Sequence record: PQ529420 | Strand: one strand, 5' to 3' | DNA: 64,000 nucleotides | Origin: Escherichia phage Eryne | Shown here: piece after piece, positions 45,368 through 54,571 of the stretch | Layout: the number at the start of each line of letters is the position of its first letter | Numbering within the stretch: position 1 is the first letter of the stretch | Translations under genes and position numbers: made by a program | The notes under the pieces: model-generated | What the model saw: only the letters and a program-made list of their open reading frames with translations | The model's database searches: none | What the model was told of the DNA's origin: nothing

Positions 45368-45375
45368 AAATATTC

Positions 45376-45433
45376 TTGACAACGTTTTTTAATCTGATAA
45401 GATGTATCACATAGGGCGGCAATAGTGCCGCTC
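45376..45433 (+). promoter_or_regulatory. early promoter with 5' stem-loop
   Basis: TTGACA, 16 bp spacer, extended -10 TGaTAAGAT, hairpin GGGCGGCA-ATAG-TGCCGCTC at transcript start. Confidence 0.55.
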
Positions 45434-45455
45434 ATAACAGAAGAGAGAAATAATC

Positions 45456-45728
45456 ATGGCATCATATAGCGCATCAATGATCGTAACGGGCATCACTGGT
45501 AAACCTATGCGCGGTGGCGGATCTTTCGCTAACATAAATATTGATGGACGTTTATCCCTGGATGCAGCGATCACCGTGGCACGGGAAACATTTAAAAAAG
45601 AATGTAATTTCAATAAACAAGATTATCTCGGTTTCGCTATTGAAAAAACCGCGCGATTTGTGGATTATAAAAGCCCGAAAATGATCGACACTACACTAAA
45701 AGCGCAAGATGTAGCGTTTTTGCTTTAA
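45456..45728 (+). CDS. hypothetical early protein
   Basis: 90 aa ORF after promoter/hairpin. Confidence 0.55.
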   Translation: MASYSASMIVTGITGKPMRGGGSFANINIDGRLSLDAAITVARETFKKECNFNKQDYLGFAIEKTARFVDYKSPKMIDTTLKAQDVAFLL

Positions 45729-45731
45729 GTC

Positions 45732-45791
45732 TTGACACTGAAAAATAATTTGGTAATATATACTCCATAAGGCGGGAAATGGTTTCCCGCC
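45732..45791 (+). promoter_or_regulatory. early promoter with 5' stem-loop
   Basis: TTGACA, TAATAT-like -10, hairpin GGCGGGAAA-TGG-TTTCCCGCC. Confidence 0.55.
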
Positions 45792-45816
45792 AGGCCATCA
45801 AAGAAAGGGTAACACA

Positions 45817-46179
45817 ATGAGCAAGCAAATCAATACTATCATGTTAAACCTGGTATCTTTCCGCGACGACGTGAAAAATCTTCCACGTGATGCAGTGGAT
45901 GCACGGATCGAAAGCTATCGCTCACAGATCGCAACGCTACCGCTAAAACGTGATCAACATGCCGCTAATATGATGCTTAATGCTATGCTTAAAAAGATGA
46001 TTCAATGTGATCTTACCCTGGCTTATGAATATGCTGGCGATCTCTTTGTAACATATAGCAAGCCCGTACCAGGTATGAGCACAACGGAAGAATTGCATGC
46101 CTTAAATCTGCGACAAGATGCATGGGATAACATGCGCCGTGTTATGGTATGGGTAGAAAGCGGTAAAATTTACGAATAA
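45817..46179 (+). CDS. hypothetical early protein
   Basis: 120 aa ORF. Confidence 0.55.
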   Translation: MSKQINTIMLNLVSFRDDVKNLPRDAVDARIESYRSQIATLPLKRDQHAANMMLNAMLKKMIQCDLTLAYEYAGDLFVTYSKPVPGMSTTEELHALNLRQDAWDNMRRVMVWVESGKIYE

Positions 46180-46185
46180 AAACGG

Positions 46186-46239
46186 TTGACATTGCACTAA
46201 AACCTGATAAGCTATCTTAAAGCGGGAATAGTTCCCGCT
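46186..46239 (+). promoter_or_regulatory. early promoter with 5' stem-loop
   Basis: TTGACA, extended -10 TGaTAAGCT, hairpin AGCGGGAA-TAG-TTCCCGCT. Confidence 0.5.
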
Positions 46240-46257
46240 TACATAGGATAAAACTTT

Positions 46258-46404
46258 ATGAAACAATATGTAATGAGTATTCACACCAAAAACGGCGCTA
46301 CTGTTACGACTCCGGCACGGTTTGCACTTGTAAACCGTTGCAAGAGACTAAAACGAGAGCTAAAAAACAACCGTGCAACGGGCTTTAAACGCTGGGGAGG
46401 ATAA
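46258..46404 (+). CDS. small basic protein (untracked)
   Basis: 48 aa MKQYVMSIHTKNGATVTTPARFALVNRCKRLKRELKNNRATGFKRWGG; frame consistent with downstream tracked ORF. Confidence 0.4.
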   Translation: MKQYVMSIHTKNGATVTTPARFALVNRCKRLKRELKNNRATGFKRWGG

Positions 46405-46406
46405 TC

Positions 46407-46667
46407 TTGTTTTTTCTAAAAGTTTTTGATAATGTGATCGCTTTTGAACATGCTACGACGTTCAACCTGGCGAGATACGCTATCAGGTTTAAAGATAATG
46501 TTTATCCCCGTGCTGGCGGCGGTTACACTATTTTTAATCATCGCAACGCGCAACTGACTGATATAACTAATCCAGATCCGGGAGTGTATCGCATAGGCTG
46601 GCTACCGTCAAAAGACGCGGCAAGCATGTTTAAGGTATGTAAACTACTAACAGAAGAGGCAAATTAG
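46407..46667 (+). CDS. hypothetical early protein (probable TTG start)
   Basis: 86 aa; GGGGAGG SD 6 nt upstream of TTG. Confidence 0.45.
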   Translation: MFFLKVFDNVIAFEHATTFNLARYAIRFKDNVYPRAGGGYTIFNHRNAQLTDITNPDPGVYRIGWLPSKDAASMFKVCKLLTEEAN

Positions 46668-46668
46668 C

Positions 46669-47223
46669 ATGGGGCGTGAGTATGTGATCCAGTCCTGGGT
46701 AAAGCATGACGCTAATGATCCGCGCATAATACCAGATGACATGATCGATCACATGGTAGGGTATAGCGGGGAGCAGATAGGAAATCGAGCGGCAAAGAGC
46801 AACGGCAACACAAAGGCGCGATCTGTTCGCCCTGGTTGGCTGGCAAATGGTAACGCTGACATTGCAAGCGCCGCAGATCCAAGCGATGACGCTAAAAATA
46901 ATCCCTTATACAGCATTGATCCGGCTTTTAAGGTGTTAGAAGAATATCCCGCTAAATTAGCCGCACTAGATAAAGCATACGAAGAAAAACGCATGGCATG
47001 GACGGTATACAACACCGCTAAAATGGTGCTAGATGCAAAATTGATTAAAGCCCAGGAGAAGATCAATAAACTTGTTGCAGTAGCGCAAGAGGAAGACCAG
47101 GACGACCAGGAGGAAGAGGAAGAAATCATGCCTACCCTGGAAGAGGAAGAGATCCAGCCATACATGCCGACGGAAGAGGAAAAAAGACAAGCCCTAAAAA
47201 ATTATGAAAATTGTCTTGTGTAA
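46669..47223 (+). CDS. hypothetical early protein with acidic C-terminal tail
   Basis: 184 aa; DQDDQEEEEEIMPTLEEEEIQ. Confidence 0.55.
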   Translation: MGREYVIQSWVKHDANDPRIIPDDMIDHMVGYSGEQIGNRAAKSNGNTKARSVRPGWLANGNADIASAADPSDDAKNNPLYSIDPAFKVLEEYPAKLAALDKAYEEKRMAWTVYNTAKMVLDAKLIKAQEKINKLVAVAQEEDQDDQEEEEEIMPTLEEEEIQPYMPTEEEKRQALKNYENCLV

Positions 47224-52640: not shown

Positions 52641-52835
52641 ATGGCGCTTAAAAAACTAACAAGCAATACTCGTTGGGATGAAATCGACGGAGAAGTTTAC
52701 ATTTTCGCCCGTAAACCAGGTGATCAAAAATGGTCAAAGGCTTTTACTTGCCACCCTGCAACAATAGACCTGATAAAAAGGGAAGGTTTACGTGAAGCGG
52801 TAGCAAGAAGTTTACTGATCCCTTATAAAAAATAG
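52641..52835 (+). CDS. hypothetical early protein
   Basis: Start at Met after hairpin (MALKKLTSNT). Confidence 0.5.
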   Translation: MALKKLTSNTRWDEIDGEVYIFARKPGDQKWSKAFTCHPATIDLIKREGLREAVARSLLIPYKK

Positions 52836-52836
52836 T

Positions 52837-52890
52837 TTGACAATACGCGGTTATCTGGTAAAGTGTACGACATAGGGCGGGGCAATAAGG
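52837..52890 (+). promoter_or_regulatory. early promoter with variant 5' stem-loop
   Basis: TTGACA-16-TAAAGT; GC-rich hairpin GGGCG...CGCCC. Confidence 0.45.
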
Positions 52891-53031
52891 CAACGCCCAT
52901 TAATGAGGGTAGAATCATGTTAGAGAAAATTTTCACGGTTGTAATAGTTGGCCTGGCGTTATCGGTTGGATTGGTTGCAACTATGGCTAACATGATCCTA
53001 TCTTCCCACGGTATTGGATAAGGTGAATCAA

Positions 53032-53247
53032 ATGATCACGAATAAGACAGGTAAAACAGAATTTTTACGCGGCTTGCAAATAGGTAAACCTGAGATCTGG
53101 CATTGCACTAAATCCGCGCATAATGAAATGAAAGATTTTACCGCTACTTTACAACGTGTTAAAATATCTATCACGCAGAAAAAAGCCTTGTTAGTAGTAG
53201 AAAACGAGATACCGCAAACCATTATTATTGTCGAGCGTACAGCATGA
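53032..53247 (+). CDS. hypothetical protein
   Basis: Start at Met with AAGGTGA SD (MITNKTGK). Confidence 0.45.
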   Translation: MITNKTGKTEFLRGLQIGKPEIWHCTKSAHNEMKDFTATLQRVKISITQKKALLVVENEIPQTIIIVERTA

Positions 53248-53630
53248 AAACTGAAATCATTATTGAAATCATCAACGGTTATAAAGAAGCCTTTATTTTT
53301 GCTGAATCAGCCAGGGATCATGAAGGCTATTTTATTGATAACTTAGACGATTATGATTTTTCAGATCAAGCCCATCAGCGGATCATTCATGACGTAGCGG
53401 CTTATTGTGATGCCAATGATGCTGCTATCTCTGAGGCAATGAGCGACGGCGCTACAGCAAACCAGATCGGGAATGATTTACATTTTACCCGTAACGGTCA
53501 CGGCGTAGGCTTTTGGGATCGCCCTGAAATATACACTACTAACACCGCCAACCGCCTAACAAATGCAGCTAAATTAATGCCATCGGTGCATGCTTACATT
53601 GGTGAAGATAATTTGATTTATATTGAATAA
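53244..53630 (+). CDS. hypothetical protein
   Basis: 128 aa; ATGA stop/start overlap with upstream gene. Confidence 0.55.
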   Translation: MKTEIIIEIINGYKEAFIFAESARDHEGYFIDNLDDYDFSDQAHQRIIHDVAAYCDANDAAISEAMSDGATANQIGNDLHFTRNGHGVGFWDRPEIYTTNTANRLTNAAKLMPSVHAYIGEDNLIYIE

Positions 53631-53636
53631 AAAGTA

Positions 53637-53695
53637 TTGACACCGATCCCCCATATGGTATTATTTACCACGTAGGCGGGAAATGGTTTCCCGCC
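53637..53695 (+). promoter_or_regulatory. early promoter with 5' stem-loop
   Basis: TTGACA-16-TGgTATTAT; hairpin GGCGGGAAA-TGG-TTTCCCGCC. Confidence 0.55.
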
Positions 53696-53718
53696 AGGTA
53701 ATCAAAAAGGTAAATACT

Positions 53719-54108
53719 ATGCGCAACCTGGTTTCTGTTTCTAACGTTGAAAAATTCCAATCTTTACAGGGTATCGTTAACAACGTAGCGCCTTTTTTAG
53801 TCAATGGCTTGATTGCAAAGATGAAAAATAAACATCATGCGGCATGGTCTGCTTACTGCTTTGATAATGATGAAAAAGCGGCTAAAATGATGTTAAATAT
53901 GCTGTTAGACAGTGTAGAATCATCTTTACCGGAAAACATCGCAGAAGAGATCACCTATCGTTATAAGATGGCGATCACTTACCAGGAGGTTGCGCAATTT
54001 AATATGATGGATGATGACGAACAACAGGATCAGGAAATGTTCTGGGAGTATGCAGATCGTCAATCGGCTTTTGATGAAAAGTTAGCGATGTATTATAACG
54101 AATATTAA
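53719..54108 (+). CDS. hypothetical early protein
   Basis: Start at Met after hairpin (MRNLVSVSN). Confidence 0.55.
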   Translation: MRNLVSVSNVEKFQSLQGIVNNVAPFLVNGLIAKMKNKHHAAWSAYCFDNDEKAAKMMLNMLLDSVESSLPENIAEEITYRYKMAITYQEVAQFNMMDDDEQQDQEMFWEYADRQSAFDEKLAMYYNEY

Positions 54109-54120
54109 TACACGGTAAAA

Positions 54121-54146
54121 GAAAGGGGCGCACTAAGCGCCCTTTT
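54121..54146 (+). terminator. rho-independent terminator
   Basis: GGGCGC-ACTAA-GCGCCC hairpin plus TTTTTT. Confidence 0.65.
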
Positions 54147-54492
54147 TTGTATTCTTTTTCACAATGGAAGCGACACGTAAAGAATAGGCGTAAAGGTGGC
54201 GTAAAACCATCTAAAACCGACTGTAACCGCTTAAACAAGGTAGGAATGATTAATCACCTTACCAGGATGAAAAAGCTGTTATAAAGCTATCTAGAGCGTT
54301 TAAAGCACATAGGAAATAATTTGCTTTTTATCTTGCCTTTTATCCTGCTTTTGATTATTATTATGGAACGGGCGGCACCTGGGGACAGGGGAAGATAATC
54401 ACCGGAAGATCCCGCTATATATTAATAGCTAATACCTATCAAACAACAAAACATCAAAGGAATAAACTATCAAATCTTTACAATCCTACCTA

Positions 54493-54552
54493 TTGACACA
54501 GGATCACCCTTATACTAATATGTATCCCGTAGGGCGGGAAATGGTTTCCCGC
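54493..54552 (+). promoter_or_regulatory. early promoter with 5' stem-loop
   Basis: TTGACA-17-TAATAT; hairpin GGCGGGAAA-TGG-TTTCCCGC. Confidence 0.55.
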
Positions 54553-54571
54553 TTGATATAGGAATCATACC

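Follow-up and report, generated by a model that had tools for sequence, protein, structure and literature searches.

Why would a phage place, almost gene by gene, a strong promoter and a GC-rich palindrome in front of a row of small open reading frames (ORFs), and what could the palindrome be doing there? The question is raised by a region of about 9 kb (45370-54560) in Escherichia phage Eryne (PQ529420), of which we analysed a stretch of 64,000 nucleotides, called the window in the following. A sequence-only reading of the window had described about twenty units of a near-consensus sigma70 promoter and a hairpin in front of small early genes, and had likened them to the promoter early stem-loops (PeSLs) of T4-type phages, in a phage with a family A polymerase and a T7-like primase-helicase; both of these are borne out in the phage genome. 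As defined in RB49 and phi1, a PeSL joins a strong sigma70-like promoter to a stem-loop in one composite cassette (Arbiol et al. 2010, PMC2839356). Such cassettes stand beside ORFans in hyperplastic regions and bring about modular shuffling, and excised mini-circles have been detected (PMC2839356); the concept was extended to other T4-like phages, PST/T4 and nt-1/KVP40 (Comeau et al. 2014, PMC4122927). The array in the window is real and far from chance. We consider it fairly probable, without claiming more, that it consists of self-contained expression cassettes, in each of which a 5' leader hairpin would protect the transcript end and would also act as part of a patch of homology for recombination.

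With 99.7% identity to Escherichia phage Paula (LR865361), the region belongs to a phi92-like myovirus, a Justusliebigvirus of the Stephanstirmvirinae; a sequence search matched it to 287 phage records in all, and in Paula the array block corresponds to genes Paula_0093 to 0070, every one of them annotated 'hypothetical'. When we searched positions 45370-54900 for TTGACA-N16-18-TATAAT with at least 10 of the 12 positions matched, 20 promoters were found on the plus strand, ahead of small ORFs, and one on the minus strand, compared to 1.5±1.2 (maximum 5) in dinucleotide shuffles. The sites have the form TTGACA-N16/17-TAnnnT and start 0-10 nt 3' of the preceding stop codon, in intergenic spacers of near-constant length (78-90 bp). 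Behind 15 of them stands a GC-rich hairpin, 6-13 nt past the -10 hexamer (mostly 10-11; mode 10), a sixteenth unit (51227) has a stem of merely 4 bp, and about five promoters (47305, 47569, 50150, 50615 and 54807) have no hairpin or a decayed one. The figure of about twenty thus holds for the promoters, whereas complete promoter-hairpin units number 15-16, each cassette measuring about 85 bp, with 17-25 nt of A-rich linker and Shine-Dalgarno (SD) sequence between hairpin and ATG. That most small ORFs have a promoter of their own is true of the majority, but about 10 of the 30 have none, since each of these overlaps the preceding gene or is tightly coupled to it, and the extended -10 TG, said to occur often, is present in only 5 of the 20 promoters. 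Genome-wide, the GCGGG-type units of the near-identical Paula genome are limited to this block (9 kb of 146.5 kb). Outside it, Paula 61921 (window 22266-22189, minus strand) has a promoter of the same design with a related GCGGAGGA stem, arranged as TTGACT-16-TATAGT, 12 nt, hairpin (22226-22208, GCGGAGGA ttg TCCTCCGC), 18 nt and an ATG at 22189; at three other Paula promoters the stem is unrelated, and it keeps the same spacing in one of them (139621) but directly adjoins the -10 box in the other two (133885 and 137423).

The hairpins occur in the 15 units exactly as the sequence-only reading had quoted them. Seven copies are of the type GGCGGGAAA-TGG-TTTCCCGCC or close variants of it, three are GGGCGGCA-ATAG-TGCCGCTC and two (AA)GCGGGAA-TAG-TTCCCGC(TT); further hairpins are AGGCGGTGG-AATAGC-CCACCGCCT, GGGGC-AAC-GCCCC and an interrupted GGGCG..CGCCC. 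The stems are G+C-rich and 7-10 bp long. In the whole 64-kb window, Rfam 15 gave no match at the gathering threshold, and a tRNA scan returned none. The nucleotides between -10 box and stem are conserved as well (..tatCACATAG, ..CGTAG or ..CATAA) and contain, after a C, a purine that varies between A and G and lies 7-8 nt past the -10 hexamer, the position expected for a sigma70 start; the predicted +1 is the conserved purine of C-R-T-A-G/A. A sigma70 start 6-8 nt past the -10 box would put the stem about 2-5 nt after the predicted +1, in keeping with the proposal that the hairpin sits at the 5' end of the transcript, and by promoter geometry the 5' overhang is predicted to be 2-5 nt, most likely 3-4. 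When the predicted 5' untranslated regions were folded, all 14 gave a 5'-proximal hairpin of -14 to -19 kcal/mol, with z scores of -1.9 to -4.9, a 3-4 nt overhang and unpaired SD and AUG.

The layout of a cassette would thus run from the end of the gene before it, whose stop codon lies in A/T-rich DNA, through the sigma70 promoter and the predicted start to a stem-loop of 7-10 bp, followed by an A-rich unstructured linker of 10-15 nt, SD and ATG. Host RNA polymerase could fire the promoter of each small gene immediately after infection, and the resulting primary transcript would begin with a stem-loop that may hinder RppH and 5'-end-dependent entry of RNase E, as in ompA, papA and T4 gene 32. 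According to passages in PMC3997798, the E. coli enzymes RNase E and RppH need an accessible single-stranded 5' end, and the 5' stem-loops of ompA and papA are protective; stabilisation of T4 gene 32 mRNA by a 5' hairpin is cited in a passage of PMC8948821. With these leaders the cassettes share a stem-loop a few nucleotides from the 5' end, followed by an accessible ribosome-binding site (RBS); they differ in that those leaders are single and experimentally characterised, whereas here a shuffled family of about 15 per genome has predicted 5' ends. In read-through transcripts, and in a promoterless copy described below, the hairpin would instead act as an intercistronic barrier to 3' exonucleases.

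Alternatively, the hairpins could be terminators or attenuators that damp read-through from upstream, so that the own promoter mainly sets the level of each gene. A PeSL stem-loop of RB49 without an obvious U-tract, once assayed, cut lacZ expression as strongly as rrnB T1, and the stem-loop was interpreted as a terminator or attenuator of upstream transcription (PMC2839356); here, damping would be useful in a row of some ten tandem promoters with no canonical terminator between them, one promoterless hairpin (52251) stands right after a stop codon, and the annotators of Paula labelled 11 of the leader hairpins as terminators. With intrinsic terminators the cassette hairpins do share a G+C-rich stem of 7-10 bp, a loop of 3-6 nt and an intergenic location, but they are placed after a promoter and lack a U-tract on the coding strand. 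In a terminator scan of that (plus) strand no cassette hairpin passed, because their tails are A-rich; they are not canonical intrinsic terminators. The genuine terminators nearby look different: a bidirectional one at 49910-49934 (AAAAGGGCGC aataa GCGCCCTTTT) has flanking A and T tracts, passes the scan on the minus strand and ends the first cassette block, and a second at 54120-54148 (AGAAAGGGGCGC actaa GCGCCCTTTTTT) passes on the plus strand and ends the second block, so that the two split the array. The labels in the Paula record lie mostly on the strand opposite the genes and are probably an artefact of automatic prediction, given that the T-richer side of the palindrome is on that strand. 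Moreover, a terminating hairpin downstream of its own promoter would abort the transcripts of its own cassette, which an RB49 stem inside the promoter cannot do. We therefore hold a terminator function to be unlikely.

The sequence-only reading had named a lack of hairpin conservation in related genomes as a result that would refute its proposal; the hairpins are in fact conserved there. The design is conserved across four phage lineages: it recurs in the Phapecoctaviruses AV125, ESCO13 and ZCKP1, in the other Justusliebigviruses PHB05 and phi92, in the Vequintavirus rV5 (four units in an 8-kb sample), in an Avunavirus and in the jumbo Asteriusviruses JNE01 and 121Q. The window and the loci of 11 relatives together hold 99 promoter-hairpin units with 39 distinct hairpins, the stem starting 10-11 nt past the -10 box in 61 of them. 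Orthologous leaders were assigned by tblastn of the downstream ORF, to avoid circularity, and among the 77 that are not identical in sequence the hairpin is kept in 67. Between phages, one and the same gene can stand behind different hairpin types: the stem ahead of ORF 52073, whose protein is 100% identical, is GGGCGGGAAA, GAGCGGCGGA or GGGCGGCA, depending on the phage. In distant orthologues the stems are unrelated (GGGGCAA/TTGCCCC, ACGGGGG/CTCCCGT, GGTGGGGAA/TTCCCCACT and GGGGCC/GGCCCC), as in rV5, the Avunavirus and the Asteriusvirus (GGGGCAA, ACGGGGG and GGGGCC). Conservation of sequence and not just of structure, as first proposed, is thus found within the few recurrent types but breaks down between phages.

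To count base-pair changes we built a covariance model from 16 seeds of equal geometry and applied it to 86 matches from the loci of 12 relatives; a plain MAFFT alignment of whole leaders, in which the 3' arms fell out of register, was unusable for pair counts and was replaced by this model. In the resulting alignment of 59 distinct copies, 96.6% of the cells pair, as against 33-80% in register-shifted controls. Compensatory changes occur at six of the nine pairs, and double-sided changes number 76, compared to 26±4 in shuffles, none of 500 shuffles reaching the observed value. These figures come from an alignment fitted to the model and from related sequences; even so, it is the helix rather than a particular sequence that is maintained. 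The few recurrent hairpin types fit concerted evolution among the cassettes. One difference between relatives is of another kind: in the hairpin at 49091-49114, locus L008 (IMGVR_UViG_3300045988_074297) has identical arms (AGGCGGTGG and CCACCGCCT) around a 6-nt loop that is the exact reverse complement (aatagc vs gctatt); this flip of the spacer between the repeats is a DNA-level event at the palindrome, by template switch or intramolecular recombination.

These comparisons also bear on a second alternative, in which the palindrome is a sequence-specific site, either a DNA operator at +4 to +24 through which a phage repressor shuts off early promoters or an RNA hairpin to which a phage regulator of translation or decay binds. 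Its appeal lies in the small number of recurrent types with a shared GGCGG core and U-R-G loops, in the seven near-identical copies, in a position overlapping the region that RNA polymerase must traverse, and in the economy of shutting off some 15 promoters with one factor. However, stem differences between orthologues are compensated, the stems of rV5, Avunavirus and Asteriusvirus are unrelated, and pairs covary as described; the type is swapped ahead of completely identical genes, the loop is inverted in one relative, and other promoters of the genome have unrelated stems at the same place. The swapping of types and the unrelated stems of distant relatives argue for structure plus concerted evolution rather than for a sequence-specific site, and gene conversion among cassettes would be the simpler cause of the recurrent types. 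Regulator binding is therefore disfavoured as the function of the hairpin, and we regard it as quite unlikely.

A third possibility concerns translation. The promoterless hairpin (52251-52271, plus strand; GGCGGGGGA gta TTCCCCGCC) lies 7 nt past the stop codon of ORF 52073 and 19 nt ahead of ORF 52291-52560. The tight hairpin-to-ATG distance, which this copy keeps, and the A-rich single-stranded linker between stem and SD would both suit an RBS insulator or ribosome standby element that keeps the initiation region unstructured, whatever lies upstream. When the 3' arm was disrupted in silico, however, the unpaired probability of positions -15 to +5 did not change (0.61 vs 0.59 in own transcripts and 0.50 vs 0.51 in read-through transcripts; not significant), and we give this explanation little credence.

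At the DNA level, the cassettes would be portable homology patches. The gene content of the array is mosaic among relatives, and its genes recur singly in rV5-like, Avunavirus and jumbo phages. They are ORFans: PHROGs gives 'unknown function' for all of them, and Pfam a domain of unknown function (DUF) in only one. We compared the region by blastn with the loci of 11 relatives, counting each junction once, and found that of 55 distinct synteny breakpoints 26 lie in cassettes, which account for 16.7% of the region (binomial p=1.4e-7). The comparison of flanking gene content that the sequence-only reading had called for thus places cassettes at the boundaries of insertions and deletions, replacements and transpositions. 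In PHB05, an extra ORF of 60 amino acids is flanked on both sides by sequence matching window 48038-48108, the cassette being duplicated around the insert, and ORF 52641 is replaced between one junction 6 nt inside cassette 52562 and another 18 nt inside cassette 52837. ORF 45456 is transposed in Phapecoctaviruses, where the junctions fall at +15/+44 in cassette 45376 and at +14/+58 in cassette 45732; ORF 47370 and the next cassette are missing from PHB05, L008 and L011; and homology to the jumbo phage JNE01 starts exactly at a -35 box (48017) and stops at a stop codon (48338). Among the direct repeats of the region the cassettes predominate, forming families of 28-76 nt, and the hairpin core provides the longest identical tracts among them, from which we infer that they may act as homology patches. 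Recombination between cassettes would then insert, delete, replace and transpose modules of promoter and gene, both inside a phage family and across families, in line with the proposal for PeSLs, and this role has comparative support.

Would such exchange require an enzyme that recognises the hairpin? The hairpins might be DNA recombination sites, site-specific or single-stranded and attC-like, at which a dedicated enzyme yields circular cassettes. Mini-circles of PeSLs were detected in RB49 and phi1, where one crossover was traced to the loop (PMC2839356), the phage genome encodes a recombinase of the resolvase/invertase family (Paula_0014), and one loop is inverted. Yet the breakpoints are dispersed over 0-78 nt past the -35 box instead of lying at one crossover, and homologous recombination between repeats of 30-76 nt would suffice, making dedicated sites highly improbable in our view. 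There is also only a slight chance that the promoter-hairpin unit is a pan-family mobile 'gene adapter', its circular cassettes moved in integron-like fashion by a dedicated hairpin-recognising mechanism. If so, it would be excised and inserted together with its ORF and would move anti-host ORFans among unrelated families of E. coli phages (phi92-like, rV5-like, Avunavirus and jumbo Asteriusvirus) during co-infection, and its transcribed hairpin would double as a recombination site.

Several points weigh against the proposal that the cassettes combine protective leaders with homology patches. Both 'early' expression and '+1' are predictions from promoter geometry, and the single-stranded 5' overhang, predicted at 3-4 nt, is borderline, about as long as effective protection from RppH and RNase E would allow, a limit reportedly due to Emory/Belasco and Foley. 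For rV5 gp11, neither Paula nor the window has a homologue (best E = 0.19); a Srd-like RNase E stimulator was not found, and as it is not encoded here, it was dropped as a rationale for 5' shielding. Five or six strong promoters of the block stand without a hairpin. A wobble strand test (G.U vs A.C) gave 17 vs 13 and no sense-strand signature; a perfect palindrome is identical on both strands, and a 'G-rich 5' arm' therefore carries no strand information. In L008, the loop of hairpin 49091-49114 was flipped without loss of the hairpin, and given the wobble counts and this flip, an RNA-level role is not proven over a DNA-level role. The hairpin-to-ATG distance is as constrained as the distance from -10 box to hairpin, and the promoterless state of hairpin 52251 is kept in L008, L088 and L089; with a promoterless hairpin so stably conserved and its spacing to the ATG so tight, the role of the hairpin can therefore not be confined to primary 5' ends. 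Finally, the enrichment of breakpoints is consistent with cassette-mediated recombination but no proof of it, because intergenic breakpoints are expected under any gene-wise mosaicism.

How close are these units to PeSLs? The likeness suggested by the sequence-only reading extends to composition, location, ORFan cargo and junctions; it fails for the position of the stem-loop and for the phage family. Both are intergenic units of about 100 bp in which an upstream stop codon in A/T-rich DNA is followed by a consensus or near-consensus sigma70 promoter, a stable stem-loop rich in G and then in C, SD and ATG, and both form clusters in hyperplastic ORFan blocks, lie at boundaries of indels and replacements and occur as degraded 'half' copies. 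In RB49, however, the stem-loop lies in the -35/-10 spacer or has the -10 box in its loop, with five positional subclasses, whereas in the window it has a fixed place wholly downstream of the predicted +1, in what would be the cassette's own mRNA. We checked RB49 upstream of ORFs 185, 186, 191, 192, 198, 204, 205, 209, 210, 225 and 226 and found stems that fill the spacer (TTGAC-AGGGGATC-acc-GATCCCCT-ATAAT) or take the other form, in which loop and 3' arm include the -10 box (GGGAGTA-gtaaga-TACTCCC). These stems begin 13-24 nt upstream of the point where the -10 box ends, compared to 6-13 nt downstream of it in the window, and the RB49 stem-loop is therefore not part of the transcript of its own promoter. 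RB49-type hosts of PeSLs are Straboviridae, while the units described here belong to Stephanstirmvirinae, Vequintavirinae and Asteriusvirus. In blastn searches the cassettes matched only enterobacterial myoviruses of about 150 kb, with no detectable sequence homology to the RB49 cassettes, and RB49 is absent among the matches listed for the protein link via rV5 ORF167. By this comparison the cassettes represent a distinct architectural variant of PeSLs, shuffling modules whose stem-loop would be a transcribed leader. Our literature searches yielded no description of composite units for phi92-like or rV5-like phages, a mention in the phi92 paper being possible; the rV5 paper gives promoters and terminators and no composite units, and the GenBank record of phi92 has only RBS and coding-sequence features in the block.

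Two other systems invite comparison. The RNase III sites in the early region of T7 are irregular duplexes of about 20 bp, cleaved in one long transcript that originates from few promoters. They too are RNA structures that recur between successive early genes, and protective hairpins remain at the ends of the mRNAs; but the 7-10 bp of the cassette stems fall below the length that RNase III needs, and every gene is served by a promoter of its own. In integrons, gene cassettes carry attC hairpins and are served by an integrase/attI system. Like them, the units form a small array of ORFan cassettes, adjacent to promoters and with an imperfect palindrome each, and circular intermediates are reported for PeSLs; they differ in having no integrase/attI system, an own promoter per cassette and dispersed breakpoints in place of a fixed crossover.

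Along the plus strand, the first block opens with cassette 1 (45376-45455; -35 45376-81, TG-extended -10 45398-403), which precedes ORF 45456-45728 and has its hairpin at 45414-45433 (GGGCGGCA atag TGCCGCTC; -14.4 kcal/mol, z -4.0). It is followed by cassette 2 (45732-45816; -35 45732-37, -10 45754-59) with hairpin 45771-45791 (GGCGGGAAA tgg TTTCCCGCC; 35 bits) and ORF 45817-46179, and by cassette 3 (46186-46257; -35 46186-91), where a weaker -10, TAAGCT at 46208-13, is combined with hairpin 46220-46240 (AAGCGGGAA tag TTCCCGCTT) ahead of ORF 46258-46404. Within ORF 46669-47223, a 27-nt tandem duplication at 47112-47165 (GGAAGAGGAAGAAATC...) encodes an acidic, E-rich repeat. An orphan cassette at 47227-47290 (-10 47250-55, short hairpin 47270-47282, GGGGC aac GCCCC) has no ORF of its own and is probably a scar of gene loss; after it, a second consensus promoter (47305-47332), which has no hairpin, drives ORF 47370-47549, and the pair (47227-47332) is comparable to the 'half PeSLs' of T4-like phages. 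A promoter with a decayed hairpin (cgggaatactcc; 47569-47644) precedes ORF 47645-48010, whose orthologues in Phapecoctavirus (L089, L091) have an intact GGCGGGAAA hairpin.

The next cassette (48017-48098; -35 48017-22, -10 TATAAT 48039-44; hairpin 48058-48074, GCGGGAA tag TTCCCGC) leads into ORF 48099-48338, which encodes 79 amino acids with Pfam DUF7249 (PHROG 871, motif NGHKNW). Relatives of this ORF are spread over many unrelated phages of 40-65% GC, on at least 80 IMG/VR contigs, and many of these loci have a GC-rich hairpin just 5' of the SD without a uniform relationship to a promoter; they were not used further. The first block continues with cassettes 48434-48515 (TG-extended -10 48456-61; hairpin 48473-48493, GGCGGGAAA tgg TTTCCCGCC, 38 bits; ORF 48516-48743), 48752-48830 (-10 48774-79; hairpin 48790-48809, GGGCGGCA atag TGCCGCTC; ORF 48831-49046), 49053-49136, with a weaker promoter, TTGCAA-16-TAAACT (hairpin 49091-49114, AGGCGGTGG aatagc CCACCGCCT, -18.7 kcal/mol; ORF 49137-49307), and 49315-49393 (-10 49338-43; hairpin 49353-49373, GGCGGGAAA tgg TTTCCCGCC; ORF 49394-49753).

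Past the terminator at 49910, two consensus promoters without a hairpin precede ORF 50217 (50150-50178) and ORF 50666-50968 (50615-50665), and a promoter with the weak 4-bp hairpin CGGC aaag GCCG (51227-51297) precedes ORF 51298-51621. Then follow cassettes 51622-51703 (-10 51645-50; hairpin 51663-51683, GCGGGGAAA tgg TTTCCCCGC; ORF 51704-51988) and 51990-52072 (-10 52013-18; hairpin 52029-52051, GGGCGGGAAA tgg TTTCCCGCTC; ORF 52073-52243). Beyond the promoterless hairpin lie cassettes 52562-52640 (-10 52584-89; hairpin 52600-52619, GGGCGGCA atag TGCCGCTC; ORF 52641-52835), 52837-52916 (TG-extended -10 52859-64; interrupted hairpin 52875-52898, -16.8 kcal/mol; ORF 52917-53021) and 53637-53718 (TG-extended -10 53659-64; hairpin 53675-53695, GGCGGGAAA tgg TTTCCCGCC; ORF 53719-54108). 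Downstream of the second terminator, cassette 54493-54571 (-10 54516-21; hairpin 54532-54554, GGGCGGGAAA tgg TTTCCCGCTT; ORF 54572-54805) is followed by a weak promoter, TTGCTT-17-TATAGT, with a decayed leader cgtagggcaaacaa that has no stem (54807-54880; ORF 54881-55264).

A search of the 64-kb window with the covariance model gave no further strong copy except at 14931-14959, where a similar hairpin (AGAGGGGGA taa TCCCCCTCC) stands, in a minus-strand gene context, right after a stop codon and before a promoter TTGCAA-N17-TACAAT, the opposite of the cassette order. Just beyond the array, at about 55500-57000 (Paula 27144-28851), lies a gene-free, AT-rich stretch of about 1.5-1.7 kb with a GC content of 0.25 and a sharp dip in GC skew, a candidate origin or regulatory region; a 'non-coding' box is likewise reported in the rV5 paper. 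The stretch contains four copies of AAATGATAATCATT, one of which (56463-56481) fits the E. coli Fur-box consensus GATAATGATAATCATTATC with two mismatches, where chance would give 0.04 such matches; it also has three 16-bp iterons in tandem (55880-55930) and further short repeats. Among the database records, 19 bear the name 'Campylobacter phage' (MG065645 and MG065689 are two of them); over 9 kb they match the E. coli phage block at about 95% identity, and their host labels look doubtful.

In the public records these hairpins are mis-annotated as wrong-strand terminators or left out, and the promoters are mostly missing. As compact natural parts that join a strong promoter, a leader and an RBS, the cassettes could find use in phage engineering, and the fixed hairpin inside the predicted transcript, which sets them apart from classic PeSLs, leads to the testable hypothesis that they are a family of natural 5' leader stabilisers, with about 15 members per genome. 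For the phages themselves, our results extend the PeSL concept from the T4-like group to large E. coli myoviruses of at least four other lineages. The early genes that would be exchanged in this way probably serve host takeover or anti-defence, and a promoter-plus-hairpin adapter beside each accessory gene may be a general plug-and-play solution for early gene exchange.

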